Shown here: positions 2,073 to 44,795 of the stretch, one piece after another
Layout of the letters: the number at the start of each line of letters is the position of its first letter
Numbering within the stretch: the first letter of the stretch is position 1
Origin: a virus
DNA length: 45,141 nt
Virus record (IMG/VR): IMGVR_UViG_3300025598_000063
Strand: one strand, 5' to 3'
The notes under the pieces: model-generated
The model's database searches: none
What the model was told of the DNA's origin: nothing
The model's input: the letters and a program-made list of their open reading frames with translations, nothing else
Program-made: the position numbers and the translations under genes

Positions 2073-3356
2073 TTATATTGCCCTGTTATCAGTTAAGGAT
2101 AATGCTACACCATAAGTAAAGGTGTCCAATAAGTCATCAGCACGTTTATATGCCTCTTTATCCCCAATTCTAAACGTAGTCACTTGCTGAAGGAAATGAT
2201 TCATCGTCCTGCCTTTCCACACAATCGTCTTTTCAAAGGCATGACGGCTGACCTTACAATCCCCCGCGTGAGCCGGGCCACCCGCTGCCATCGCTCGCTC
2301 GTCCTTACCCTTCGCCATCAACTTAGAATCAATCGCGTGAAAAGGCCATGCTCTCGCTTTCGCCCATTGCAGCAACACACTCCCACCCGCTGCATCTTCA
2401 ACAAACACACCTAAACTCCCATTCCGCGCAGATGTAGCCTTCGCCAATTCTTCGCACCGCTCTAATATCAACGGAGCCAAATACTCTAAACTGGCTGCCT
2501 CGATCGCAAACGCATCGTAGTCCAACACAACCAACTTATGCCCAAAGTGACGATTCACCGCAAAGTACATCACCGCTGTCGCGTCATTCTCACTACCACT
2601 CTTCACCGCACAGTCCATTACCGCAAAGACCGCATCACACTTCTCAGGGTAATCAACCGGCTGCTCGTCAACCAAGAAGTACTCCAACTTGAAGAACGTA
2701 CTATTTGACCAAGATATAAACTCAGCCAAAAACTCCTGCTGAAACACTAGCGGATGATTACTCTTCTCTTCTTTCGCCAACTCGTCCTGCGGCACATACG
2801 GATTCGATGCTGTCGGCGCATGGTGAAACTTGAACTCCAAATCGGGATCACGACATATTTGAAAAAAGAAATTTTCTTGATCCACGCCGTTTGGTGTTGA
2901 AAACATCCAAGCATGACCCTTGGTCGTCAACATCGTGGGCTTAATCGACTTCTTCCAAATATCCATCATCTGCGCATTTTTCGAGAACGCCATCTCATCA
3001 CCCAATACCAAGTGATATTCGCGTCCACGACCCGCCAATTCATTGTCGGTCAAATACCAGAAATCCAAATGCCCACCATTGATGGTGCGAATGATCCCGT
3101 CATTCTTACTGGAATTGCGCGTGACAGGCTTCAACATCGCCGCCAACTCTTCATACGGTTCAAATAACTGACGGTGCTCAGGTGCGAATATACCGACTTT
3201 GCGACCCTGTAAAGCATACTGCGCAGCCAATGTGACCAAGAACTTAGTCTTGCCCCATCGCCGTCCACAACACACCGCATTCAGTCTGCCACGGTTCTTC
3301 CACAGATTAGCCTGACCCCTGTGGAAAACCGGTGGATCAATCTGGATTGTCGTCAT
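2073..3356 (-). CDS. terL: Terminase large subunit
   Basis: 427 aa with a Walker A-like CCGRRWGKTKF near the N-terminus. The C-terminal half has nuclease-type acidic motifs (AVMDCAVKSGSENDATAV). It overlaps the terS end by 20 nt. Confidence 0.88.
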   Translation of the reverse strand: MTTIQIDPPVFHRGQANLWKNRGRLNAVCCGRRWGKTKFLVTLAAQYALQGRKVGIFAPEHRQLFEPYEELAAMLKPVTRNSSKNDGIIRTINGGHLDFWYLTDNELAGRGREYHLVLGDEMAFSKNAQMMDIWKKSIKPTMLTTKGHAWMFSTPNGVDQENFFFQICRDPDLEFKFHHAPTASNPYVPQDELAKEEKSNHPLVFQQEFLAEFISWSNSTFFKLEYFLVDEQPVDYPEKCDAVFAVMDCAVKSGSENDATAVMYFAVNRHFGHKLVVLDYDAFAIEAASLEYLAPLILERCEELAKATSARNGSLGVFVEDAAGGSVLLQWAKARAWPFHAIDSKLMAKGKDERAMAAGGPAHAGDCKVSRHAFEKTIVWKGRTMNHFLQQVTTFRIGDKEAYKRADDLLDTFTYGVALSLTDNRAI

Positions 3357-3714
3357 CTAGCGGCAGCGCACCCTTAACCTCAATCACCAACTTATTGTTC
3401 CCATCATCCGTTTCACGCCATCGCCCACGCGTCTTTAAAAAGAACATCGTGCTGGCAGGTATCTGCATGACCGTGGCTTGATGATACAAAGCGTTTGCCA
3501 CATTCATCACCGCGTTAATGTGACCGTCTTCCAAGTCATCCTTGTAATGCTTAACCAATGTCTCATGCGTAATTCCTAGCCTACGGGCAATGTGCTCATG
3601 CGTAATGCCAAAGGCAGACAAGTCACGGACGGTCTGCCGTGTTTGTTCAGTCGGCTTGTGTGAAGGCCGACCAGTTTTCTTTTTACCTTTAGAATCAACG
3701 GGTTGTGCGCTCAT
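3337..3714 (-). CDS. terS: Terminase small subunit (HTH type)
   Basis: 125 aa with a basic N-terminus and an HTH (FGITHEHIARRLGITHETLVKHY). It has an FFLKTRGRWRE motif as in many small terminases and is the first gene of the late block. Confidence 0.7.
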   Translation of the reverse strand: MSAQPVDSKGKKKTGRPSHKPTEQTRQTVRDLSAFGITHEHIARRLGITHETLVKHYKDDLEDGHINAVMNVANALYHQATVMQIPASTMFFLKTRGRWRETDDGNNKLVIEVKGALPLDDDNPD

Positions 3715-3766
3715 GTATCGGTTCCTTACAAAAACGTCAGGGATAAGATTTTTATAATTACGAAAA

Positions 3767-3775
3767 ACTATACCA
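3767..3775 (-). promoter_or_regulatory. Candidate extended -10 element of the late promoter (TGgTATAGT on minus strand)
   Basis: Lies about 50 nt upstream of the terS ATG in an AT-rich spacer downstream of two terminators. No convincing -35, so an activator may be needed. Confidence 0.3.
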
Positions 3776-3847
3776 GAAACCGCCTTTTCATATTTTTTTA
3801 TAAAAATTTTCAGCGTTTTTAAAAGGCGTTTTTAGAGAAAAGGGGGC

Positions 3848-3875
3848 AAAAAAAGCGCAGAGGATAGGGCTGCGC
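3848..3875 (-). terminator. Rho-independent terminator (minus strand)
   Basis: GCGCAG (3855-3860) pairs with CTGCGC (3870-3875) around a 9-nt loop. On the minus strand it is followed by a T7 run (plus-strand A-run 3848-3854). Confidence 0.6.
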
Positions 3876-3960
3876 GAATTGCGATGGTAGGGGGAGATCA
3901 GTACCTTTTTCATGCGATTACCCGCAGATTTTTGCGCGATTATTGGATTGATTGCACATG

Positions 3961-3990
3961 CGCCCCGCCCCGCTATTTTGCGGGCGGGCG
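3961..3990. other. GC-rich imperfect hairpin (cgccccgccccgc tatttt gcgggcgggcg) in the spacer upstream of terS
   Basis: Read directly. Almost pure G/C arms in an otherwise roughly 45% GC genome, with no U-run on either strand. Confidence 0.5.
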
Positions 3991-4006
3991 AGCGAATCGA
4001 CTAGGC

Positions 4007-4032
4007 AAAAAAAAGCCCGATCGGTGTCGGGC
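4007..4032 (-). terminator. Rho-independent terminator ending the leftward early/middle arm
   Basis: GCCCGA (4015-4020) pairs with TCGGGC (4027-4032) around a 6-nt loop. A T8 run follows on the minus strand (plus A-run 4007-4014), 44 nt after the stop of the 66-aa gene. Confidence 0.8.
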
Positions 4033-4075
4033 TTGTAATGGATAAAAAATAGCGAGCGTGGGGGGCGATGGCTGT

Positions 4076-4554: not shown

Positions 4555-4742
4555 TGTTGCATCCCTCTTAAATAGAATTCGTCAATCCAATCCTTAACAA
4601 TCAATTTAATTTCACTGATTGAGTACCCGCTAAAACGATTGCGATAACTGGCTGCATCGTCATAATGATAGGCCTGTACGTTTACAGTCTCTAAACCAGT
4701 TTCGATTGTGTAGAAAAAATCTCGATAATTAAAGGTTTTCAT
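4551..4742 (-). CDS. Hypothetical protein (63 aa)
   Basis: ORF track; TAATG overlap with the stop of the clamp-like gene. Confidence 0.55.
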   Translation of the reverse strand: MKTFNYRDFFYTIETGLETVNVQAYHYDDAASYRNRFSGYSISEIKLIVKDWIDEFYLRGMQQ

Positions 4743-5398
4743 TATGCTGCCTCCTTTTCGAGCACTGGCAAGATCACGGGCGGTTGATCAAAAAACCGCT
4801 TGCATCCTTCATAAGCTGGTACAACACTAGAGCGAATCGGCATGATCACGCCTACAAAGTTTGAAATATTTGAGATTGTAATGGCCCCTGCACTGTCCCC
4901 ATTTTGATGCAAGAAAACGTGGTGCGGTTTTTTATTAAACTCCTTTGCTACCTTGATAAATCGCGCCAATAACTCAGGATCATAATTTCCTACCGTGTTA
5001 CTTACTTCCTTCACAAGTACTCGCTGCCAGTCGGGAAAACGACCGTCTACCGTAGCGGATAGCATTTTAATATTGATGCTATTGATTTTGACTGATATAA
5101 CTTTTAAATGATCAATTGGCGTAAACTCAAACTCTACTAACTCATCCTTGATGCGGTGCGCGGGTTTAAGGTTTTTCACGGTATCGAGCGGCAAAATAAA
5201 ATCATAATGCTGATCGTCATCAATCTCGTTATTTTGATCGTTTTTATATACCCCCAGGACATGACCATCGGTGGCCACGATGGTTGTTTGGGTAGCATTA
5301 GCGCGTATATATACGCCGTTCAGGTAATAACGGATATCCTTAGTCGCTGCAAGGTTTGCAATGGCTTTAATTGCGTTCATGTGTGCGTAGATTTTCAT
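4742..5398 (-). CDS. DNA polymerase III beta sliding-clamp (DnaN) homologue lacking domain I (218 aa)
   Basis: Motifs match E. coli DnaN as I remember it: VATDGHVLG vs VATDGHRLA, VDGRFPDWQRVL vs VDGRFPDYRRVL, and C-terminal VGVIMPIRS vs YVVMPMRL. The length corresponds to domains II-III only. Confidence 0.72.
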   Translation of the reverse strand: MKIYAHMNAIKAIANLAATKDIRYYLNGVYIRANATQTTIVATDGHVLGVYKNDQNNEIDDDQHYDFILPLDTVKNLKPAHRIKDELVEFEFTPIDHLKVISVKINSINIKMLSATVDGRFPDWQRVLVKEVSNTVGNYDPELLARFIKVAKEFNKKPHHVFLHQNGDSAGAITISNISNFVGVIMPIRSSVVPAYEGCKRFFDQPPVILPVLEKEAA

Positions 5399-5427
5399 AA
5401 TATTAGTATCCTTATTTAGTCGTAGAA

Positions 5428-5733
5428 TTAAGCGGCAATATCAAGCGGCAAAGCATGGTAGTGACTGGCAAGTAATTTTCTAGTTTGATCCCATTTGGCG
5501 GGTTTACGCTGTCCTGATTGTAGAATCGCGCTGATATGAAAACCGTCGAACGGTTGGAAATCGTTTTCCTCGATGATCATGTTTTTTACATGGTTTAAAT
5601 GATCGGATAATTGATTGACCGTTCCTGTGAAAATACCCCTGTGCAGATATTCCATTGGCAAAATAATAAACAAGTTATCATTTTGTTTTTTTGTTGATGG
5701 GTTTGCGATAATAATAAAATCGTATGCTTTCAT
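5428..5733 (-). CDS. Hypothetical protein (101 aa)
   Basis: ORF track. The RBS module TAAGGATACTAcgATTATGAAA is nearly the same as the one in front of 5398. Confidence 0.6.
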   Translation of the reverse strand: MKAYDFIIIANPSTKKQNDNLFIILPMEYLHRGIFTGTVNQLSDHLNHVKNMIIEENDFQPFDGFHISAILQSGQRKPAKWDQTRKLLASHYHALPLDIAA

Positions 5734-5763: not shown

Positions 5764-5847
5764 TTAAAAACCTAAACTTAGCCAAAATAAAATTGAAATT
5801 GATAACAACAAACTAATAGCAACAAACCAATCAGAAAAGCTATTCAT
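5764..5847 (-). CDS. Possible 27-aa hydrophobic peptide (MNSFSDWFVAISLLLSISILFWLSLGF)
   Basis: Hand translation. The ATG overlaps the upstream stop (ATGA at 5844-5847) and the peptide has one predicted TM helix. It is below the ORF-track size cutoff. Confidence 0.35.
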   Translation of the reverse strand: MNSFSDWFVAISLLLSISILFWLSLGF

Positions 5848-6245
5848 GCCGCTACCTTTAAATCATTATTTGTTAAAACGTAAGGCTTATCCCATGCGCC
5901 AACATGGCATGAATAATAGTAGGCACAATTGAAATAATCCGTCATCGAATCGCTCTTATCAAACCAGTCCGCTGATTGCAATGCGTCTCTAATGGCTAAA
6001 AGAATATCTCTTGATGGGTTCTTATAATTGTTTTCTATATGGTAGTTGCATTGCAAGTAATAATCTCTTGCATAATTGGCCCATGCGGTACAGTCCCCAA
6101 AAAAATCAATGGGGCCTGAACGTAAAGTGCAAAGAATTTTAGAATGATGTTGTACGCTTAAACTGTACTTAATCCCTAGCGGTTTAAGTATCTTATCTAG
6201 GTTTGCTTTGATAACTGATTTTTTTTCTTGGTTCATGTAAGCCAT
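5844..6245 (-). CDS. Hypothetical protein (133 aa), first gene of the second leftward transcription unit
   Basis: ORF track. AAGAGGA RBS 7 nt upstream of the ATG, preceded by a 381-nt non-coding region. Confidence 0.65.
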   Translation of the reverse strand: MAYMNQEKKSVIKANLDKILKPLGIKYSLSVQHHSKILCTLRSGPIDFFGDCTAWANYARDYYLQCNYHIENNYKNPSRDILLAIRDALQSADWFDKSDSMTDYFNCAYYYSCHVGAWDKPYVLTNNDLKVAA

Positions 6246-6471
6246 TTTCTTAATCCTCTTAGTTTGCTTAAAAAGTTATCGGTTTGTTACTGCATCCGAT
6301 GAGTAATCTTCTCACAAGTTCTCACGTTATGCAATAGGATAAACCTTGCATCGGTGTAAGATTGTGGTATCCTGTCATACGTTGTCAGGTTCAGTCAGGA
6401 TCGACAATCATTCTATATATATGCCGATTTTTTTCCGCGCTAGGGTAGGGGATAACTGGCAATTCTAGGGG

Positions 6472-6500
6472 ATTTTATGATGAAAATTGCAAAATGCTAA
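6472..6500 (-). promoter_or_regulatory. Candidate sigma70 promoter (minus strand: TTAGCA - 17 nt - TAAAAT)
   Basis: Read from the reverse complement: -10 = 6472-6477, -35 = 6495-6500. It would give a leader of about 220 nt to the ATG at 6245. Confidence 0.35.
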
Positions 6501-6524
6501 CAAAATCAATGGTTTAGGGTGGCT

Positions 6525-6544
6525 TACTGTATAAATACCCAGTA
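6525..6544. promoter_or_regulatory. LexA/SOS-box-like palindrome TACTGTATAAATACCCAGTA
   Basis: Fits CTGT-N8-(A/C)CAG with the flanking TA..TA. The CCAG right arm is the same variant as the E. coli uvrB box as I recall it. It lies about 25 nt upstream of the candidate -35. Confidence 0.45.
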
Positions 6545-6552
6545 TTTTGGTT

Positions 6553-6589
6553 AGTGAGTGCTCACTGGGGCGGTATGTGAGTGCTTACT
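6553..6589. promoter_or_regulatory. Two operator-like 14-mers: AGTGAGTGCTCACT (perfect 6-2-6 palindrome, 6553-6566) and TGTGAGTGCTTACT (6576-6589)
   Basis: Read directly. The centres are 23 bp apart, in the non-coding region between rusA and the 133-aa gene. Confidence 0.45.
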
Positions 6590-6626
6590 AACATGATCCT
6601 GTGGTTTTTAACGTGTTTTTTGCCTT

Positions 6627-7151
6627 TTATTGCCCCTGCGGTTCCAGCGCGTCAATCTGTACTTCGATCCGAGGATGGTGGCTATACGCCTTCGTGACAA
6701 CCAAGTGGGTGACTGCGCTGTCATCCGCGAATGCGATACAGTTCAATGCGTCACCCACGATCTTCGCAATGTTGTCAGCATCCGGCTTCTTCGTGGCTTT
6801 CAATTGCCCCGTAATCGCCTCTTCCTTCTTCTTCTTCGACCACGATGCCGCTATCGGGAAATGCGCTTGAATGCGCATACTAATTGCACCCTCGATTGGC
6901 TTTGCACCATTCATTGCTTCTAATGCAATCATTTTAATTAAATTCTCATACAACACCGTTTTCTCAGGAGTGACGTGTTGAATAAAGTTTCCTTTCTTAT
7001 AACTCCGCGCTCTGCCTTTCGCTACGGGTTCACCCGGTACATCAAAATGAATTGAGCTAATGAGCTGAGTTGAGCTAACTGAGCTAAATTGAGCTGAAGG
7101 AATTGAGCTAAAATCGTCAGCTAAATCAGATTGAGCTAAAGGTTTTTTCAA
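6627..7151 (-). CDS. rusA: RusA-family Holliday junction resolvase with a ~40-aa Ser-rich N-terminal extension
   Basis: FDVPGEPVAKGRAR...KPDADNIAKIVGDALNCIAFADDS matches RusA catalytic-core motifs. TTG start at 7151 with a GGGAG RBS, overlapping the upstream stop (TTGA). Confidence 0.85.
   Translation of the reverse strand: MKKPLAQSDLADDFSSIPSAQFSSVSSTQLISSIHFDVPGEPVAKGRARSYKKGNFIQHVTPEKTVLYENLIKMIALEAMNGAKPIEGAISMRIQAHFPIAASWSKKKKEEAITGQLKATKKPDADNIAKIVGDALNCIAFADDSAVTHLVVTKAYSHHPRIEVQIDALEPQGQ
7052..7140. repeat. Eight iteron-like copies of (T)GAGCT(A/G)A inside the 5' end of rusA
   Basis: GAGCT begins at 7054, 7062, 7072, 7081, 7091, 7105 and 7133, with a degenerate CAGCT starting at 7118. 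Spacing is 8-14 bp. The repeats encode the low-complexity SSIPSAQFSSVSSTQLISS stretch. Confidence 0.8.
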
Positions 7152-7389: not shown

Positions 7390-8136
7390 TCAAAAAAGAA
7401 AATTTTGTTGCGTTAAATTCTTACTCCAAAATGTAAGCGATTGATTCACTTCAATTCGTTCTCTAATCACCATCGCTCTTACATCTTTAGAAGCAGGTGT
7501 TCGCGATCCCTTCCAATTTGAATCAATGCCAACATTCTTTGCGATGTTAGTTGAATCAGCACTGCTGAAAGGTAATCTTGAAAACACATCCGGGTTCAAC
7601 ATTCGTAAACCATGTAACTTGCAAATGGGGTTTCCATTTTTGTCACAGATTGCATTCATAGCTTCCACAATTCTATTCCACCATGCTTCATTATTTACCA
7701 CTGCATATTGCCCACTTGAACCAAGACATACTCTAGGCCATTCAAGTGCCAAATTAAATAGTCGATCAATAGATTCATGTAGATGCCAAACTGGTGCTCC
7801 TACCCATTTGTTTTTCGGTTCTTTCCAAGGCCATTCTTTAAGTAAGTCATCGTTATCTTTTTCATTCCCATCGATAACATCTGGAATAACAGCAAAATCA
7901 AATGATGGATATCGATGAAGTTCTCCAATCCATGAATAATAATTCGACCAATCTTCTAATGGCTTACCGCTCTTCCATGCAGAGAACGCTCCATTATCCA
8001 CAGCAAAAGATTGGCATACTTCCAACACTAAAGATAATTGTTGCGGATAACGAAATGAAACGAATGCGTGACCCGATTTAACTGCATTAAATGCCGCTGA
8101 TGCAGGAGTAATTGGTAAACCATGATAATGAATCAT
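7390..8136 (-). CDS. Hypothetical 248-aa protein; possibly a TGT-fold / DpdA-like DNA-modifying enzyme (tentative)
   Basis: AGAGGG RBS. The motifs MIHYHGLPITP, VDNGAFSAW, KLHGLRML and SSADSTNIA remind me of the DpdA / tRNA-guanine transglycosylase-like family. Not verifiable without a profile search. Confidence 0.6.
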   Translation of the reverse strand: MIHYHGLPITPASAAFNAVKSGHAFVSFRYPQQLSLVLEVCQSFAVDNGAFSAWKSGKPLEDWSNYYSWIGELHRYPSFDFAVIPDVIDGNEKDNDDLLKEWPWKEPKNKWVGAPVWHLHESIDRLFNLALEWPRVCLGSSGQYAVVNNEAWWNRIVEAMNAICDKNGNPICKLHGLRMLNPDVFSRLPFSSADSTNIAKNVGIDSNWKGSRTPASKDVRAMVIRERIEVNQSLTFWSKNLTQQNFLF

Positions 8137-8220: not shown

Positions 8221-8271
8221 GATCGTGGATTCTATCCCCCTTCTCGTCAGTCTGAACCCTAATCCACGATC
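8221..8271. repeat. Perfect 11-bp inverted repeat GATCGTGGATT / AATCCACGATC with a 29-nt spacer
   Basis: Read directly. The right arm overlaps the TAG stop (8259-8261) of the P-like gene, in the 122-nt gap before the 248-aa gene. Confidence 0.7.
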
Positions 8272-8966
8272 ACCCTGTCCTTCCTCGAAGGGGCTATAGG
8301 CTCGTTTACAGCATGTTTGGCAGGACTTTGCGTCATGCGCAATACGCTGGGTTCAATTCCCAATGCCTCGCTCACACAGCGTATTTGCGATTCACAAAGC
8401 GATTCACCGTTTTTGAAATCGTTTAATAATCTAAACGCCCAATCTTTACCACCGTTAGCCGGTTTCTTTTTCAAGATGCTGTCAATCTGTTTCTTAATCT
8501 GATCAATGAATTCAGCGTTTGGTTTTTCAACAGGCTTGCTTTCCAATAGCGGTGGTGGAATATAAATGTCTTTGCCAAAATTGACGAAGCACTGATCCAA
8601 GATTGTTTTCCATCGAGCCTTTGCTTTCTCGTAATTGTCTCGTCGAATATCAAATTGACCGTATTGCTGGGCGGCTTCAAAAACAGCTTTCAAATAAAAA
8701 TCGCCTTTCGCTGCCTCGATGAACAATTGCTCGTAATTCAGTTTCGGTCTTAACCATGACAAGATGTCGGACAAGGATGGTGGATATTGTTGCTGTTTAA
8801 TTTGAGGATAGATTGCTCGAATATCTTCCACTGCGAATTCGGATAATTCCATTGACCAAAAATCAAATATTTCTTCCAATGTGTCATTGGAATATTCCAA
8901 GTTCATCTTCGAGCCGAAGAGGACTTTCATTCTCGCAAATAACGGTTCGACTACCTTGACGCGCAT
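8259..8966 (-). CDS. Replication protein P-like (helicase-loader candidate); start uncertain (8966, 8930 or 8906)
   Basis: EIFDFWSMELSEF...QQYPPSLSDILSWLRP parallels lambda P EIRRQWVLAFREN...RPFLPSPGQFVAWCR (from memory). The ORF track starts at 9080, but that overlaps the upstream gene by 197 nt. Confidence 0.5.
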   Translation of the reverse strand: MRVKVVEPLFARMKVLFGSKMNLEYSNDTLEEIFDFWSMELSEFAVEDIRAIYPQIKQQQYPPSLSDILSWLRPKLNYEQLFIEAAKGDFYLKAVFEAAQQYGQFDIRRDNYEKAKARWKTILDQCFVNFGKDIYIPPPLLESKPVEKPNAEFIDQIKKQIDSILKKKPANGGKDWAFRLLNDFKNGESLCESQIRCVSEALGIEPSVLRMTQSPAKHAVNEPIAPSRKDRVIVD

Positions 8967-9738
8967 CTCTGGTGCGCTTAAATAATTCTTCGGTGTTTCT
9001 GAAGTCGTTGTCTTTTCGTTGTTGGTATCCATTTCCATTTGCTCCATTCGTTTTTTGAATTGATTCTTTTTTCCATTCATCGGCGCGATTTAACCAAGTT
9101 CTAATGGCTCGCTGCCAATCCACATATTTCAATCCTTTCGCTAAGGCATTGTCTTTAAATGATCGAAACATACGATCAATGTCCAAATTTAATTCTTCCG
9201 CCAAAGCAATTACAGATTCATTGGGTGTCAAGTCATCAGGAAAAGTTGTTTCGTGAGAGACAGCCCTGCCCCTCTTGGGGCGATCAGACTTTTTTTCAGC
9301 GTCAACACCCTCTTCCTTTCCATGTTCCATTTCCTTTCCATTCCCTGTTCCACTTCCACTTCCGGTAGTGAGGACTCCATGAGTATTCATTGAGCTATCA
9401 TTGAATTGGATTAAGTCCTTGATCTTGCTAGCTGTTTTTCTGTTTATAAACTGATGTTTCTCAAAATTTGTCACTTTGCCATACATCTTGTTATCGACCC
9501 CTAAAATGAGTTGTATGTAACCTATGTTTGATAACTCATTGAGTAATCCATGAATACTCACTGAGAGATCACGGAGTGGAAATACATCGGATTCGACTAG
9601 CTTAGGGTGAGCGTTGAAATAACCTTCATCATCACTGTAATTCAACAATCCAATTGCTAATAATGCCGCTTCAGCGGATATTTTACTTAATGGTTCATCG
9701 CGCCAGAATTCTGGTTTGACTGTTCTGATTCTTGCCAT
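8884..9738 (-). CDS. Replication initiator / replisome organiser candidate (O-like position)
   Basis: The N-terminus MARIRTVKPEFWRDEPL...LLAIGLLNYSDDEGYF is a recurrent phage replication-protein N-terminus. GGAG RBS; precedes the P-like gene. Confidence 0.5.
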   Translation of the reverse strand: MARIRTVKPEFWRDEPLSKISAEAALLAIGLLNYSDDEGYFNAHPKLVESDVFPLRDLSVSIHGLLNELSNIGYIQLILGVDNKMYGKVTNFEKHQFINRKTASKIKDLIQFNDSSMNTHGVLTTGSGSGTGNGKEMEHGKEEGVDAEKKSDRPKRGRAVSHETTFPDDLTPNESVIALAEELNLDIDRMFRSFKDNALAKGLKYVDWQRAIRTWLNRADEWKKESIQKTNGANGNGYQQRKDNDFRNTEELFKRTRDARQGSRTVICENESPLRLEDELGIFQ

Positions 9739-22120: not shown

Positions 22121-22396
22121 TTAAGCAGCGGGTGCTTCGGCTGGGGCAGCGTCAGCAACGGGAGCCTCAGCGGGTGCAGCATCAGCAACAGGAGCCTCAG
22201 CGGGTGCAGCATCAGCAGGAGGATTGCGCAGTTCTTCGGGAAGCTGGGGCAATGCGATGTTCTGAATGCCTTGAATAATGTTAAACACATCTTTTGCTTT
22301 GCACTCGCCAAGTGCAGCTAGTGCTGCATTGACTAAATCCAAAGGCAATGAAATTTGAGGTTGTGGTTGTAATTCAGGTTGTGCTTGATCAGACAT
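22121..22396 (-). CDS. Hypothetical 91-aa protein with a Pro/Ala-rich repeat tail
   Basis: ORF track. The C-terminus is 3 x PVADAAPAEA, encoded by the 30-bp tandem repeat. Confidence 0.6.
   Translation of the reverse strand: MSDQAQPELQPQPQISLPLDLVNAALAALGECKAKDVFNIIQGIQNIALPQLPEELRNPPADAAPAEAPVADAAPAEAPVADAAPAEAPAA
22131..22220. repeat. 30-bp tandem repeat, ~3 copies (ggagcctcagcgggtgcagcatcagcaaca)
   Basis: 22161-22190 and 22191-22220 differ only in the last 3 nt; 22131-22160 is a degenerate copy. Confidence 0.85.
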
Positions 22397-31862: not shown

Positions 31863-32519
31863 TTACGGCCCTGTCCTTGGTGTCACGCTTGTCAAACCGG
31901 AATTCGTATCAGTACCCGCGATTACAAATCCTTTCTCCAATCTTGTGTAAAGCAGATTGGTTGCGATAGACGCTTGCTGTTGTGTGAGTAATGGCTGTAT
32001 AAAATCCCATTGATATATAGACTGCACCTGACGATCCTCAATGCTTGTAATGTCGCGCAACGAAGTGAGTAAACACGTTTGATAGACATAAGCAGGAGTT
32101 AAAATATCAAACGTACCGCCTTGTGCAACATGGTTTTGCACCTGAGTTTGCAAATTGCTCAAAATAGATTGCCGCGCTGAAAAACTGATTCCGTTGCTGG
32201 CAGGACACATCATCAATAAAGACACTTGCAGCGGTTGCGCAATACTGGCATTCGCAGCTATGACGCTGTTTGCGAAGGGATAGTTTGCAACTTGCCAGTT
32301 TGTTAGCATTGATCCCGGCACAGGTTTGAAATGCGCAAAAAAATTGTTTAATTGGTTTGACGATAAATAGGTTCCTGCACTATTTACGTTATTGAAATAA
32401 CCCGCTTCCAATAGGTTTGCAACAGGCATCGTGCCATCAGTCATGCCCTGCGCAATACCGTCTACAAAGAATATTGGCGATATTTCATACGCTAATTGAA
32501 AGTTTGTAAAATCACTCAT
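31863..32519 (-). CDS. Distal tail / baseplate-associated protein candidate (218 aa)
   Basis: Immediately downstream of the tape measure gene with a 4-nt overlap. Confidence 0.45.
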   Translation of the reverse strand: MSDFTNFQLAYEISPIFFVDGIAQGMTDGTMPVANLLEAGYFNNVNSAGTYLSSNQLNNFFAHFKPVPGSMLTNWQVANYPFANSVIAANASIAQPLQVSLLMMCPASNGISFSARQSILSNLQTQVQNHVAQGGTFDILTPAYVYQTCLLTSLRDITSIEDRQVQSIYQWDFIQPLLTQQQASIATNLLYTRLEKGFVIAGTDTNSGLTSVTPRTGP

Positions 32520-35107
32520 GCTGCTTGTGTCAATCCAGTAGCGGCCTGTAATGCACCTTGTTGAACCAGACTACCTGTCATATTTTGCACCACAACAGAT
32601 TGTGGTTGAATGATAGTAAAGGGGTATGCCGAACTTGTCTTTTTATTACCATCTACCGGTGATGGTGGCGTGATTCCAGCATTGGCGGGTTGGTTTTCAA
32701 ATTTCCGCAAGTAATCCTTGCCCAGCGGCCCTGCCTTCGATAGTGGACTTGCTCCTTTATCCAAAATGGTTTCGCCTTGATGATAAGCCAAAACCGCTTC
32801 AGACAAATTGCCATGCGTCTTGGTCATCAAACGATGTAAATGCTTTGCCGCCAATTGCGCTGATTTCTTTTCATCATACAAATCTTCCATCGTGACATTT
32901 GGATCATAATCCTTTGCCGTTGACGGTTTCATCTGAAAAAAGCCATACGCTCCTTTTCCGGCATAACTTAAATTCTTTCCACCGGCACTTTCGTTTTGTT
33001 CAATCTTTGCTAATGTTCCGGCTGGCAATCCCTCTGCTTTTTCAATTTCTGCAAATTTGCTCTTGTCGTAAACAATCGGGCCTTTGTAAGAAAAATCATT
33101 AGCCGGAGCAGCACTGCTTTCTTTTCCAAACAATCCTTTTGGTACATCTTTTAACGAAGCCGGAGCAGCAGGAGATTTAACAGCGGTTTCTCCATATAAC
33201 ATCTTGTACAACCAAGAGCTTTTGTCTAACGGAGGCGTATTCTTTGCTTGCAGATCAGAATCAAATAAATCTCTTAGATCAAATGTACCCTTTATGGTCA
33301 GCCACAAACCTTCTACGGCTTTCTCTAAATTCTCTACAAAGGAATGTTCAAACAGTTCAGCGACACCGCCCAAACCTTTTGACATACCCACCATGACATC
33401 GGTAAAACCGTTTTCAATGTTGATCAATCCGGGAGATATTTTTCCTACAAATTCTGTCCAAGCATTGGACATTTTTGCAAGATTCACAGATGTTGCATCA
33501 CCCAATTTCGTGATTGCTTGTGCGGATTTTTTCATCTCAGGCGTTTCTTTATCCAAAGCATCCAGATTTGCCATACGCGCTTTTTGTTCGGTTTCAGATG
33601 TGTTTTTCATTTGATTGATTGCCGCAGGACTCATACCAAAGTATTTAGTCAAAACCTGACCGGCTTGCGATTCAATACCAAAATTCGGTTTCTTAACCTC
33701 TTTAAACGCATATTCCAACAGTTTTTTGTACGTTTCGAGATTTGATGCTTGTGGCGCAGCACCCACAAATTCACGCATCACATCGCGTGTTTGAAAGCTG
33801 AGTGACTTTTCGGCAATGGTGGATAAGACTTCACCAGCATTGATACCGTACTTTTCAGATGCCTCGGCTGCACGTTTTTCGGTCAACGACAATCCCAAGC
33901 CTTTTGCTTCTTGTATCTCGCCGGCTACCTTTGCGCCATAATCAAAAGTAAATTTCTTCGCTTCGTATAGTCCTGCGACACCAAGACCTAGCGTTGCCCA
34001 TTCTTTTAGGGTTTTGGTTGTTTCATTGACTTCACTGCGTATGCTTTTAAACGGCGTTTCAATCTTTTTGGCATTCTTTTCGGCTTCTTTGTAACCATTG
34101 TTGCGCTCACGCTCATACTCTTCATCTTTCTTTTTATTCAGTGCGCGATCATCGGACAAGATAGACGGAATCGATTGACGCCGGCGTTTGAAATCCCGCA
34201 TCAAATCTTGTTCTTCTTGTTTCTTAGCGTTTTCTTCAAACTTCAAACGGCGTTGTTCATCAATCGTTGCTGCCTTTTCATCGGCAACACGTTTCTTTTC
34301 TTCCGCTTTCTGTTGTTTTGTTTCTTCGGCAAGACGTTGCTTTTCAACCTGTGCTTGATATCTTTCTCTAGCCTTTAAGGTTTTGCTAATCTCATCGTCA
34401 ATGGCCTTTTCTTCTTGCGCCATTTGTTTCTGACGTTTTGTTTTGGCACTTTCTTCTTGCGCCAATTTCTTGTCTTGTTCTTTCTTGAGTGCCTTATCAA
34501 ACTTCTCTTGAGCTTTGAGCGTGGCTTGTATTTCTTTTTCTTTGGCATTTTGCTCGGCTAGAATTGCCTTTTCTTGCTTTTCACGCGCTTTGGCTTCTTC
34601 ACGATCTTTTTTAGCCTGTGCTTTCGCAACTTCTTCAGCATACTTCTTAGCCGCTTTTTCTTCAGCAACACGTTTTTTTTCTAACTCTTTCGCAGCCTTT
34701 TCCTGTTCCTTTTGACGCGAATCTTCTTCCTTCTTAACCTTTTCAGTGGCTGGTTGAGATTCTTTAATCTTTTCTTGAGTTTGATCTTTTAAAGTCGGAA
34801 TTGAACCGACAGCTCGAAACGCTTCAGCCGTTTGCTTGATGGCATCGGTAACGGATTTTGCTGATTTGGTTACGTTTTGAAGATTGGCATCTACCTTGGC
34901 AATAGATTGAGCAATCTGATCTGCACTGGTGCTGACTGCTTTAAGAGAATCCGCAGCACCCGCTGCCTCTCTAATTGCATCGCTAACTTGCGCCCATTGT
35001 TTGGGCATCTTGTCCAACATTTCTTTATAGCGATTGAACGCTTCCAGAAACGCCGTAAACGATTCCGCTTTTACATCAATGTCAATAACACTGCGAAACT
35101 CGCTCAC
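32516..35107 (-). CDS. Tape measure protein with C-terminal lytic transglycosylase (SLT) domain
   Basis: 863 aa, GTG start overlapping the chaperone stop (GTGA). Long Lys/Glu-rich coiled coil (residues ~105-350) and an SLT signature IEQNESAGG...GAYGFFQM. Confidence 0.85.
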   Translation of the reverse strand: MSEFRSVIDIDVKAESFTAFLEAFNRYKEMLDKMPKQWAQVSDAIREAAGAADSLKAVSTSADQIAQSIAKVDANLQNVTKSAKSVTDAIKQTAEAFRAVGSIPTLKDQTQEKIKESQPATEKVKKEEDSRQKEQEKAAKELEKKRVAEEKAAKKYAEEVAKAQAKKDREEAKAREKQEKAILAEQNAKEKEIQATLKAQEKFDKALKKEQDKKLAQEESAKTKRQKQMAQEEKAIDDEISKTLKARERYQAQVEKQRLAEETKQQKAEEKKRVADEKAATIDEQRRLKFEENAKKQEEQDLMRDFKRRRQSIPSILSDDRALNKKKDEEYERERNNGYKEAEKNAKKIETPFKSIRSEVNETTKTLKEWATLGLGVAGLYEAKKFTFDYGAKVAGEIQEAKGLGLSLTEKRAAEASEKYGINAGEVLSTIAEKSLSFQTRDVMREFVGAAPQASNLETYKKLLEYAFKEVKKPNFGIESQAGQVLTKYFGMSPAAINQMKNTSETEQKARMANLDALDKETPEMKKSAQAITKLGDATSVNLAKMSNAWTEFVGKISPGLINIENGFTDVMVGMSKGLGGVAELFEHSFVENLEKAVEGLWLTIKGTFDLRDLFDSDLQAKNTPPLDKSSWLYKMLYGETAVKSPAAPASLKDVPKGLFGKESSAAPANDFSYKGPIVYDKSKFAEIEKAEGLPAGTLAKIEQNESAGGKNLSYAGKGAYGFFQMKPSTAKDYDPNVTMEDLYDEKKSAQLAAKHLHRLMTKTHGNLSEAVLAYHQGETILDKGASPLSKAGPLGKDYLRKFENQPANAGITPPSPVDGNKKTSSAYPFTIIQPQSVVVQNMTGSLVQQGALQAATGLTQAA

Positions 35108-42368: not shown

Positions 42369-44795
42369 TTATTTACGGTTGTTTTGGGTGTTAAAGGCAA
42401 CAACACGCTGGGCGGGAACAGTGAAACTTTCCAGCCAAGAATTAACGTCACCCTTGAACTTGGTAATGGTACGACCAGCACGATCACGCTCTTCAATTGC
42501 GATCAAGTTGCCGCTACCAATCTGACTGTCATTGCGAGCCGCAGCATTCACTGCATCTGCAAAAATCTGTTTCTCAGCCAAAGCCAACAATGCCTTGTCT
42601 TTGATATTGCGTAAGTTGATGTCTTTGTAAGAATCTGAATGCGCTTGCAAACCACGCAACAGACGCTTGCGGTAAGCCATCAAACCTTCTCCCTGTAAAG
42701 GACGGCTGGCTGATTTGCCAAATGCGGAATAGATTGAATCGGCTTTTGCTTGTGCATCAGCCATCATCATTTCTTCTTCATCAGCCTTCTTCGCCATTTC
42801 CTCTTTCTCTTCATCGGAATAGCAATCGTCATCGTCATCAGGCTTCATTTCACCAGCGGGGCCATGCTCTTTAGGATCAGAACCCTCAGCATCTTTACGC
42901 TTCTTGTCACTAAACTTCATGTGTCCGGCTGGGCCTTCCATCATATTGTCTTTGCGCATATCTTCTTCGTCATCGTCCTTGCGCATCTTGTCGTCATCAT
43001 CGTCTTTGCGCTTCTTACGATCAGCCGCCATCATTTCTTCGTCCATGCGGTCATCATCATCGTCTTTCTTGGCATCATCGCCACCACGGACGTAAGAACG
43101 TACCTTGTGCTTGGCTTCGTCATCTGCCTTACCAGCCGCAATGTGGGTTAGGGGTTCTTGGGGAAGATTCTTTTCCATAGCATCTACGCGAGCGGAGATA
43201 TTATGGATAGCATTCAGAATCGCATCCAGTTTGTCGCCTTGGGCATCTGCCTTGGCTTGGTTCATATCGGTCATATCAGACACCTCAGGATTGTTAAGAA
43301 GTACACCAGTGGCAGGGCCGCCCTTATCCCAAACACCTTTACTGCCTCTGCGTTTGGTGACAATGGCGATATGATCTAACAAAAATGGTTTTCCTTCAAT
43401 CAATAAAGGATCGCCACTCTCGGTGATCAAATTCCGATTACCCGAACGCTCGTCAAATACCACGCTTGGGCTTGTACTAATATCGCCCTCGCTGATTTCT
43501 TTCATTGCGTCCGAATCATAAACTTTGGCAATGCCCCATACTTCGTCATCACCGTGGAAATAGGGTAACAGAATACTGCCAATCGCCCTATCTTTGAATT
43601 CTTTGCTGTCCAAAATACTGCTGTCCGGGTGATCCATAATCACCGTCAGACCATTGCAACGCTGCAAGAAATCTTCGTTCATATACAAGGACTTGTCGCG
43701 CCAAACGTGTTCCTCAATGCTGGAACGATACGCTAAACCCGTACCCGTTATGCGAATCGCTAATAAGTGCATATTCGCAAAAGGCTGGGGGCTTGGCAAA
43801 ATGCCTTCAGCCATCAACCGTGCTACATCCAACTCGGTATCCGCAGCCGCAACCTTAAACGCATCAATGTCACCGGGATGTATCGGCATCGGCAGATGAT
43901 CAGGATCAGTCCAAACAAATCCATCAGATTCATAGTTTAGTTTGGGCGTAAACTTCGGCACAGGGTCAGCCGCATAGAACGCAATGAATTGTCCATTATC
44001 GTGTACAGGAATCAAATCGCCTTCATACATAAACCCTGTTTCTTCGAATACTTCGCGCCGCGCTCCCTCTTCAGCCGTTTCCGTACCATTCAAATGCCCA
44101 CCGGGGATCGCAAAATGATATGGAAAATCACCGCCATTTCCACGGCGCAACATCAATATCGTGCCATCCGGTGCTTCAAACATAATCCCCGCTGCACGGG
44201 TTGCTGCACCGCCTTGTGGCCCAATAGGGTAGGGGTTCGGGTGAATAATTCCCGATGGCTCAAAGTCGGACTTCGGCACACAGTTAGGCACTTGCTTGCC
44301 GCCTTTCTCTTTCATGCCGTATTGCTCGTAACCTTCCCAGCAGGGATCAGCATCTAGCATGGATTCGTCACACTTCCATTTGCGCAACGACTTATTAATT
44401 CGGCTGTCAGGATCATGCGCTGTCTTTTCGGAAGTCAACTTAGCCTTCATGCCTTTCATGCGAGCGCAGAATGATTTCTTTCTTGCCCCGCCTTCTGGCT
44501 GTGGACGCTTTAGATGTGCGCCATGCTCTTTATTGTAAGAAGCACGACCTTTTTCATTTAAACCACCTTCAGGATTCTTGCCTTCTTTCTTTGTCCACGC
44601 TTCCGCATCTTGTTTCATCTTGGACAATTCAGCGTATACGCCTTGCAATTCTTTATTCAAGGCTTTCATGTCATTACGCTTAGGAGATTTCCCCACAAAC
44701 TCGCATCCAACAGACTGTGGAACGCCACCAAACCCACCGGGAGTATGGCAAGCGGCTTGCATTAAACGCTCTTGAGCAGGGCTAGTTGTGGGCAT
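42369..44795 (-). CDS. 808-aa capsid-assembly polyprotein: basic N-terminus + Nudix hydrolase domain + DUF2213-like scaffold/protease-like region + Asp/Met/Lys-rich tract + helical C-terminus
   Basis: Perfect Nudix box G233-HLNGT-E-TAEEGAR-REVFEETGF255 (44031-44099). The stretch MHLLAIRITGTGLAYR...LTVIMDHPDS...EVWGIAKVYD resembles DUF2213. It occupies the scaffold/protease slot. Confidence 0.7.
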   Translation of the reverse strand: MPTTSPAQERLMQAACHTPGGFGGVPQSVGCEFVGKSPKRNDMKALNKELQGVYAELSKMKQDAEAWTKKEGKNPEGGLNEKGRASYNKEHGAHLKRPQPEGGARKKSFCARMKGMKAKLTSEKTAHDPDSRINKSLRKWKCDESMLDADPCWEGYEQYGMKEKGGKQVPNCVPKSDFEPSGIIHPNPYPIGPQGGAATRAAGIMFEAPDGTILMLRRGNGGDFPYHFAIPGGHLNGTETAEEGARREVFEETGFMYEGDLIPVHDNGQFIAFYAADPVPKFTPKLNYESDGFVWTDPDHLPMPIHPGDIDAFKVAAADTELDVARLMAEGILPSPQPFANMHLLAIRITGTGLAYRSSIEEHVWRDKSLYMNEDFLQRCNGLTVIMDHPDSSILDSKEFKDRAIGSILLPYFHGDDEVWGIAKVYDSDAMKEISEGDISTSPSVVFDERSGNRNLITESGDPLLIEGKPFLLDHIAIVTKRRGSKGVWDKGGPATGVLLNNPEVSDMTDMNQAKADAQGDKLDAILNAIHNISARVDAMEKNLPQEPLTHIAAGKADDEAKHKVRSYVRGGDDAKKDDDDDRMDEEMMAADRKKRKDDDDDKMRKDDDEEDMRKDNMMEGPAGHMKFSDKKRKDAEGSDPKEHGPAGEMKPDDDDDCYSDEEKEEMAKKADEEEMMMADAQAKADSIYSAFGKSASRPLQGEGLMAYRKRLLRGLQAHSDSYKDINLRNIKDKALLALAEKQIFADAVNAAARNDSQIGSGNLIAIEERDRAGRTITKFKGDVNSWLESFTVPAQRVVAFNTQNNRK

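Follow-up and report, generated by a model that had tools for sequence, protein, structure and literature searches.

Introduction

Bacterial polymerases, Hda, the mismatch repair system and the clamp loader are coordinated through one hub, the pocket of the β sliding clamp, at which antibiotics have been aimed as well. Herpesviruses have processivity factors with clamp folds that do not form a canonical ring: UL42 is a monomer and UL44 is a head-to-head C-shaped dimer, and in both the groove equivalent to the pocket receives a peptide of the polymerase. The Staphylococcus phage proteins Twort ORF168 and G1 ORF240 and the Caulobacter toxin SocB interfere with the docking of partners on the clamp, and SocB is cleared by ClpXP. 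The ssrA tag ends in ...YALAA, and its terminal LAA is read by ClpX. A clamp protein that is devoid of domain I has been described in E. coli under the name β*, and it is the model behind the trimer idea that is taken up below. β* reportedly arises from a start inside dnaN as a UV-inducible product of 26 kDa, as described by Skaliter, Paz-Elizur and Livneh in 1996.

In the complete E. coli clamp, the head-to-tail dimer interface is formed by Ile78, Phe106 and Arg103 of domain I together with Ile272/Leu273 and Glu298-Glu304 of domain III, and the C-terminal strand, N320/Y323 and residues of domain II build the partner-binding pocket at the boundary of domains II and III (PMC11139829). Mycobacteriophage integrases and repressors carry ssrA-like tags that lead to their degradation by ClpXP (PMC9635641). 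Short phage relatives of the clamp are already annotated but uncharacterised, and one phage genome paper merely names the gene without analysing it (PMC3483164). In the literature that we searched, we came across no work on the function of a truncated phage clamp and no account of a protein that combines one and a half clamp domains, a conserved pocket and a degron-like tail.

Here we analyse one such gene, the product of which we call mini-β, in a 45,141-nucleotide stretch of viral DNA (IMG/VR record IMGVR_UViG_3300025598_000063), referred to below as the window.

Results

A clamp-related gene at the end of an early operon

The window is a complete ~45-kb phage genome of the myovirus type and encodes a tail sheath, a baseplate, a portal and a terminase. 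A sequence-only reading of this DNA had proposed that a 218-residue product encoded on its minus strand is a DnaN homologue lacking domain I, on the strength of three sequence landmarks. All three were found in the complete ORF, at residues 41-49, 117-128 and 182-190 (Table 1). The closest in-frame stop codon lies 15 codons 5' of the ATG with no ATG, GTG or TTG in between, so that no 5' extension of the gene is possible. This upholds the earlier claim that no upstream extension restores domain I. Furthermore, hundreds of relatives begin at the same point, and the missing domain I is therefore not a truncation artefact of this particular gene.

In the window and in its closest relatives, the early operon ends with this gene and the small-terminase gene follows directly. 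The terminator-like hairpin listed in Table 1 lies before the small-terminase gene and brings the early gene block to its close. Elsewhere, the early region contains a replication initiator (8884..9738), RusA (6627..7151) and an Erf/exonuclease/SSB module. We detected no DNA polymerase, primase or helicase among the sizeable ORFs of the window, in agreement with the earlier statement that the genome encodes no DNA polymerase, and the phage encodes no clamp loader. The 101-residue upstream neighbour had only three detectable homologues, too few for modelling, and the PADLOC models of anti-phage defence proteins matched neither mini-β nor six of its neighbours. A clamp-binding-motif scan of the early proteins returned one internal hexamer-like match, QLSLVL in the product of 7390..8136, which is about the frequency expected by chance. 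The C-terminus of this product of the same operon, QQNFLF, resembles a clamp-binding motif.

The gene had also been linked to an SOS-box-like site, a one-mismatch CTGT-N8-ACAG sequence at 6527..6542. A LexA-box search found 15 such matches in the window against 15.5 expected by chance, which leaves this link unsupported.

Table 1. Coordinates of mini-β, its parts and its surroundings in the window
Feature	Position	Strand	Basis or remark
Mini-β ORF, complete	4742..5398	minus	218 aa and stop codon; PHROG 3007, E=2.1e-31, residues 1-190
Shine-Dalgarno-like AAGGA	5409..5413	minus	10 nt 5' of the mini-β ATG; direct sequence reading
Predicted equivalent of DnaN domain II, two units (residues 1-116)	5051..5398	minus	Pfam, PDB alignments, AF2, conservation
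Domain II pocket residues R23, L26, T43, G45, H46, L48			E. coli R152, L155, T172, G174, H175, L177
VATDGHVLG motif	5252..5278	minus	Residues 41-49
Predicted equivalent of the II-III linker (residues 117-134), VDGRFPDWQRVL	4997..5050	minus	P122, R126, V127 correspond to E. coli P242, R246, V247
VDGRFPDWQRVL motif	5015..5050	minus	Residues 117-128
Predicted single half-domain (residues 135-190)	4829..4996	minus	AF2; hhalign
VGVIMPIRS motif	4829..4855	minus	Residues 182-190
Tail (residues 191-218), no DnaN counterpart	4745..4828	minus	Aromatic patch KRFF; ends ...LEKEAA
Upstream neighbour, 101 aa, family not recognised	5428..5733	minus	C-terminus ...LPLDIAA
Second upstream neighbour, 133 aa, PHROG 10415 (function unknown)	5844..6245	minus	C-terminus ...DLKVAA
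Intrinsic-terminator-like hairpin and T-run	4013..4034	minus	Consensus match only

Homology to DnaN

Mini-β is a true homologue of DnaN, and the similarity is far beyond chance. Residues 8-123 match the Pfam family PF02767 (DNA_pol3_beta_2) with E=3.3e-13, and TIGR00663 is matched with E=2e-17. Forty solved β clamps were retrieved by sequence with E-values down to 4e-9, in alignments that place residues 11-51 of mini-β on residues 140-180 of the E. coli protein. Profile-profile comparison with DnaN by hhalign gave probabilities of 99.4-99.8%, and a Foldseek search with the predicted fold, described below, matched the E. coli and Pseudomonas clamps with E~1e-11. The proposed homology is thus borne out.

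The homology does not extend to a whole clamp. The TIGR00663 match covers only profile positions 136-284, and its 63.2 bits fall far below the curated cutoff of this DnaN equivalog model (137.65), so mini-β is not a whole-protein member. A three-domain DnaN of ~366 residues has PF00712, PF02767 and PF02768, whereas PF02767 was the only clamp domain found in mini-β and 20 of its relatives; the Pfam models of domain I and domain III (PF02768) gave no match in mini-β or in 10 relatives. NCBIfam has no specific model for the protein. When the C-terminal unit was searched alone against PDB sequences by HMM, no clamp was matched, and a single-sequence hmmsearch against E. coli halves recovered the MPMR strand alone. 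The phage family PHROG 3007 is, however, matched over its full length (profile positions 1-186 of 190).

Predicted architecture

We built a confident AlphaFold2 model of the single mini-β chain on 63 relatives (mean pLDDT 92.8, pTM 0.86). It shows the processivity fold, which consists of repeated β-α-β-β-β units, and the Foldseek matches agree with this assignment. There are three such units in the model, at residues 2-54, 65-115 and 138-185, and not four. In place of the ~120-residue domain III of DnaN, mini-β has ~56 residues (135-190), which are predicted to form a strand (138-139), a helix (141-153) and three further strands (161-164, 171-175 and 181-185); another 28 residues (191-218) extend past the C-terminus of DnaN. 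The last strand, GVIMPIR, corresponds unambiguously to the C-terminal strand of E. coli DnaN (V360-R365).

The origin of the remainder of the half-domain is less clear. In hhalign comparisons, the isolated half-domain scored 36.2 against DnaN residues 310-365 and 14.6 against residues 254-300, but once the last strand was removed the scores were nearly equal (15.9 and 14.6), which makes the assignment ambiguous. Colinear hhalign and MAFFT alignments pass through the first half of domain III, following residues 254-291 and then jumping to 354-365. The family motif F-N-P-x-Y-L, in turn, matches F319-N320-x-x-Y323 of DnaN. Because the two halves of domain III are internal repeats, the sequence does not settle where the helix of the half-domain comes from.

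According to the model, mini-β comprises domain II and the II-III linker, followed by a single half-domain with strand β8'' at its end, and it is predicted to lack both domain I and half of domain III. The sequence-only reading had envisaged domains II and III, which cannot be reconciled with three units, or one and a half domains, in a protein without a PF02768 match. The same count speaks against the proposed PCNA/gp45-like trimer, as three protomers of three units would supply nine units, whereas a ring has 12.

The head-to-tail dimer interface is also missing from the model. There is no domain I, and the only half-domain of domain III ends in the pocket-side strand: in β, strand β8'' sits at the pocket and thus faces domain II, and the opposite face, which makes the dimer interface, has no counterpart in mini-β, as a lone half-domain cannot supply both faces. 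As mini-β does not have the known dimer interface, it would be unable to close the usual ring, and the model does not support canonical ring closure. The suggestion that the protein caps host β through a domain III-domain I interface is left unsupported on the same ground, since the face with Ile272/Leu273 and Glu298-Glu304 is the one without a counterpart.

Conservation of pocket and helix residues

Residue conservation was evaluated in an alignment of 251 relatives of 170-260 residues, and the pocket was taken as the 18 residues of subsites I and II given for E. coli β (PMC11139829). The mean conservation of the pocket residues was 0.75, compared with 0.39 for the other 172 core positions, and none of 100,000 permuted residue sets reached the pocket value (p<1e-5). 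Of the nine columns with the highest conservation, seven are occupied by pocket residues that E. coli shares (R152, G174, P242, P363, M362, T172 and L155). In mini-β itself 13 of the 18 residues are identical to the E. coli ones and two are conservative replacements, so that the pocket is present at the sequence level. Judging by this alignment, the pocket is the selected feature of the family. The earlier statement that the II/III pocket is retained can be strengthened accordingly, as no other part of the family is so well conserved, and this favours the decoy for clamp-binding-motif proteins among the roles that had been put forward.

A basic residue is kept on each of the three helices (K11 in 77%, K81 in 73% and K149 in 75% of the family). 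With a median pI of 6.4, the family is close to neutral or slightly acidic, and we down-weighted a UL42-like basic DNA binder for this reason.

The C-terminal tail

The confidence of the model declines along the tail: pLDDT is 84 and then 79 for residues 191-210 and 64 for the last eight. In the family, the segment that follows MPxR is variable, with a median length of 25 residues. A P-x-W motif occurs ~10 residues past MPxR in 52% of the members, and the sub-branch to which mini-β belongs has KRF[FL]D instead.

The tails commonly end in alanine. The last residue is Ala in 167 of 257 members (65%) and the last two are Ala-Ala in 105 of them (41%), with ...ALAA, ...VAA, ...IAA and ...AVA being common endings; the remaining 35% do not have the final Ala and several members have no tail, but the core is retained. 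The -AA termini of the family resemble the ssrA tag in sequence. Mini-β ends in KEAA, with Glu at position -3, where Leu, Val, Ile or Ala is common in the family. Both genes immediately upstream encode products that end in AA (...DIAA and ...KVAA), so that three consecutive genes of the operon share this ending. On a related contig (L001), the 102-residue homologue of the 101-residue neighbour ends in ...YDEALAA and the mini-β relative ends likewise (...EALAA). The -AA ending also occurs in the unrelated family of the 7390..8136 product.

Family and gene neighbourhoods

The family is very large and is carried by phages. One search gave 187 relatives, and a search of a representative library of 1.84 billion proteins returned 1,735 clusters at E<1e-30, of which the best 150 were nearly all 190-250 residues long. 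We confirmed a relative in 495 IMG/VR stretches and found one in 62 GenBank phage records. In bacterial genomes, the gene is located in prophage-like islands, for example in Achromobacter, where it adjoins RdgC and a ParB-like gene; a plasmid search produced mostly full-length dnaN paralogues. Pfam scans of the longer relatives showed PF02767 and low-complexity tails only, and there was no tandem fusion of mini-β units among 259 relatives. The BFVD contains many phage models of ~200 residues with the same shape. The labels given to these proteins vary. Individual records name a 'DNA polymerase III beta subunit', and PHROG 3007 is called a 'RusA-like Holliday junction resolvase', which is at odds with the fold.

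We examined 80 viral loci. A primase gene was nearby in 30 of the 80 and a family-A DNA polymerase gene in 25, and clustering of the loci showed that the co-occurrence of primase, terminase and family-A polymerase is confined to one large lineage. Across these 80 loci, no partner gene was universally conserved, and the termini of the neighbouring polymerases and primases contained no clamp-binding motif. In BcepC6B the relative adjoins the DNA polymerase gene, and in EP23 and some Klebsiella phages it forms a lone or small opposite-strand cassette within the structural genes.

Discussion

The explanation that we prefer, tentatively and at slightly less than an even chance, is that mini-β is a short-lived module which does not form a ring, offers only the clamp pocket, binds clamp-binding peptides and thereby diverts them from, or competes with, the host clamp. 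Domain II, the linker and the strand of the half-domain would together rebuild the hydrophobic pocket that accepts clamp-binding motifs of the QL[SD]LF type. Free mini-β that does not encircle DNA could then bind the motif peptides of host Pol III α or ε, δ, Hda, MutS/L or translesion polymerases, and possibly those of phage proteins. Early in infection it would compete with host β or tether the partner proteins elsewhere, and its ssrA-like C-terminus (...EAA here, and ...ALAA, ...VAA or ...IAA in relatives) would probably pass it to ClpXP, keeping its action brief. The homology, the conservation of the pocket, the breadth of the family and the tail statistics are observations and the fold of one and a half domains is a prediction; we infer the peptide binding, the identity of the ligands, the monomeric state and the proteolysis. 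The δ subunit is bound ~50-fold more tightly by monomeric β than by the ring (PMC11139829), and a pocket module outside a ring can therefore be a strong competitor.

Several observations sit uneasily with this explanation. The conserved Lys/Arg residues of the helices suggest that a DNA-facing surface has been kept, which a decoy acting off DNA would not need, and the frequent proximity of primase and family-A polymerase genes fits a positive role in replication equally well. The present phage seemingly relies on host Pol III, and indiscriminate sequestration of Pol III or δ would harm such a phage, so that some selectivity in the capture of partners must be assumed. The P-x-W motif, or KRFF in mini-β, could fill the pocket in cis from its position ~10 residues away, in which case the conservation of the pocket might reflect self-binding. 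As to the degron, position -3 of the mini-β tail is occupied by Glu and not by a hydrophobic residue.

The main rival is an oligomeric clamp, which we consider unlikely, although the conserved helix lysines and the polymerase and primase neighbourhoods keep it in play. Two half-domains would pair on a two-fold axis to make a pseudo-domain III in a C-shaped dimer of six units, and a pair of these dimers might then complete a ring of 12 units (4 x 3, D2 symmetry) that serves as a processivity factor or a DNA-bound platform for host Pol III or phage family-A polymerases. Three units per protomer and 12 per ring are compatible with the pseudo-symmetry of the clamp fold, the basic residues are kept on all three helices equivalent to those that line the channel of β, genes for primase, DNA polymerase, helicase or exonuclease are often nearby, and the pocket is kept as in true clamps. 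However, the known β dimer interface is missing, neither of the two new interfaces has an observed precedent, and the pockets would point to both sides of the ring. The near-neutral family pI, the lack of an encoded clamp loader and the absence of a natural tandem fusion also count against it, and the tail, which is modelled on the monomer with fair confidence for residues 191-210, may cover the exposed face of the half-domain. The more specific proposition that four protomers form a closed 12-unit D2 ring, or two a UL44-like C-clamp, and thus a fourth sliding-clamp architecture with pockets on both faces that works with host Pol III or the phages' own family-A polymerases, strikes us as decidedly improbable. 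Nearly as doubtful is a scaffold in the phage replisome or recombination machinery, in which the pocket would hold a phage partner, or the protein's own tail (P-x-W or KRFF) as a latch, and leave the partners of the host clamp unaffected. The conserved aromatic motif so close to the last pocket residue, the fairly confident tail (pLDDT ~80), the location of the gene within replication or recombination modules and the motif-like end of the 7390..8136 product are in its favor. Yet no neighbouring family is conserved across the whole mini-β family, the 7390..8136 gene is missing in the closest relatives that retain mini-β, and host β has the identical pocket residues, which have not co-diverged; this speaks for ligands in common with the host clamp.

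We give very little weight to the tail as the main function of the protein, an idea that is wholly inferential: an abundant early protein with an ssrA-like end would saturate ClpXP (or SspB) and so spare other phage proteins, or it would deliver bound proteins to ClpXP. The frequency of -AA in the family, its presence in three consecutive genes of the operon and the same ending in the unrelated 7390..8136 family agree with such a function, but more than a third of the members do without the final Ala, several without any tail, and still keep the core, and the conservation of the pocket is left unexplained. That mini-β is a decaying, functionless fragment of a captured dnaN is scarcely credible. 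It is far shorter than DnaN and scores low against TIGR00663, but the thousands of clusters, their consistent length and boundaries, the strong site-specific conservation, the confident fold prediction and an intact ORF with a ribosome-binding site already contradict this reading.

If mini-β is indeed a pocket module, its family would be a natural minimal version of the pocket, carried on a scaffold of one and a half domains without a known ring-closing interface. It could reveal by what means phages redirect or shut down replication and repair in the host and which of the partners is most important to them, and it could serve as a small soluble reagent to study the ligands of the pocket or to screen for them. 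Several unrelated early proteins end in ssrA-like tails, a hint that early phage functions may be programmed and timed by ClpXP. The database labels can be corrected as well, as mini-β is not a 'RusA-like resolvase' and falls short of a full 'DNA polymerase III beta subunit'.

Comparison with known systems

The named phage proteins of PHROG 3007, namely Burkholderia phage BcepC6B gp31, AH2 gp20, Shigella phage EP23 gp08 and Yersinia phage P400 gp35, belong to the same family as mini-β. Their tblastn identity to it is 26-37% over 80-88% of the query, and PHROG 3007 relatives in the BFVD have the same predicted fold with TM-scores of up to 0.78-0.84. These proteins are known by annotation only, and mini-β differs from them in belonging to the KRF[FL]D sub-branch and not to that with P-x-W. 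The ssrA-like tag of mini-β has a parallel in the mycobacteriophage integrase and repressor of integration-dependent immunity (PMC9635641), which are, however, unrelated proteins from unrelated hosts. Twort ORF168, G1 ORF240 and SocB are ligands of the host clamp pocket, whereas mini-β would be a copy of the pocket itself. UL42 and UL44 have two full domains, a basic DNA-binding face and no sequence homology to mini-β, the family of which is not basic.

Two E. coli proteins are the closest in domain composition. β* has complete domains II and III, that is, four units, whereas three are predicted for mini-β; furthermore, mini-β represents a separate gene family and has a tail. The full-length E. 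coli β (DnaN, 366 residues; PDB 1MMI and 2POL) has six units, and in comparison with it mini-β would lack domain I, half of domain III, Ile272/Leu273 and Glu298-Glu304 and would gain the 28-residue tail. In spite of these differences, mini-β is predicted to have the same processivity fold as β, domain II, the II-III linker and the C-terminal strand are homologous, and the pocket is largely preserved, residue for residue.

C-terminal endings of the early proteins

Three consecutive gene products encoded on the minus strand of the window between positions 4742 and 6245 end in Ala-Ala (table), the last of them being mini-β, the DnaN-like product of about one and a half clamp domains. Among the other listed ORFs of the window, this ending is found only in those at 22121..22396 and 32516..35107. 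In L001, a related contig, mini-β and its 102-aa neighbor have a common …EALAA ending. These endings suggest that the early proteins have a C-terminal signal in common, putatively an ssrA-like ClpXP degron.

Selected features of the early region
Feature	Position	Strand	Description
Early gene product	5844..6245	-	ends in …KVAA
Early gene product	5428..5733	-	ends in …DIAA
Mini-β	4742..5398	-	ends in …KEAA
Non-coding gap	6246..6626		380 nt, between RusA and the next gene
LexA-like palindrome	6527..6542		CTGTATAAATACCCAG, one mismatch, inside the gap
Promoter-like site	6500..6472	-	inside the gap
Terminator-like hairpin	4013..4034	-	strong, with 8 bp (5 of them GC) and a TTTTTTT run after it

The 248-aa product of 7390..8136 (-) matches PHROG 887 (“queuine tRNA-ribosyltransferase”, i.e. 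DpdA/TGT-like) with an E-value of 7e-71, and has no match in Pfam or among PDB sequences. It terminates in QQNFLF, which resembles a clamp-binding motif of the C-terminal type. The conserved C-terminus of its 120 closest homologues is Q-[PSA]-[IV]-Q-M-E-[IL]-A-A, with 31% of them ending in AA and 55% in A. The protein may be a DNA- or RNA-modifying enzyme that either is held at the clamp or carries a tag for ClpXP.

Putative transcription signals and other genes

The LexA-like and promoter-like matches in the non-coding gap are both of kinds that occur at chance frequency within the window. The terminator-like hairpin sets the early block apart from the small-terminase gene (3337..3714), and expression of the late genes would require either their own promoter in 3715..4012 or read-through past this hairpin.

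The replication initiator gene (8884..9738 (-)) and the longest ORF after it (8259..9080 (-)), which has no family match and occupies the presumed helicase-loader position, overlap by 197 nt, and the true start of the latter is probably further downstream. In the head/packaging block, the 808-aa product of 42369..44795 (-) contains a PHROG 6216 domain and a NUDIX hydrolase segment (residues ~201-311); in its relatives, the Pfam domains are DUF6321 and NUDIX.

Mini-β in other genomes

PHROGs labels the mini-β family (PHROG 3007 and 12598) as “RusA-like Holliday junction resolvase”, and this label has been inherited by phage records such as GenBank NC_071156.1, NC_021563.1, NC_042037.1 and others. 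The true RusA of the window is encoded by a separate gene, 6627..7151 (PF05866, E=1e-35). The label is probably an annotation error, and the fold is that of a clamp fragment.

In a prophage-like island of an Achromobacter chromosome (L012/L013), the mini-β genes are adjoined by RdgC and ParB-like genes. In Klebsiella phage RSU-F4K5 (L007), a small ParB-like/DNA methyltransferase/mini-β cassette is set among structural genes.
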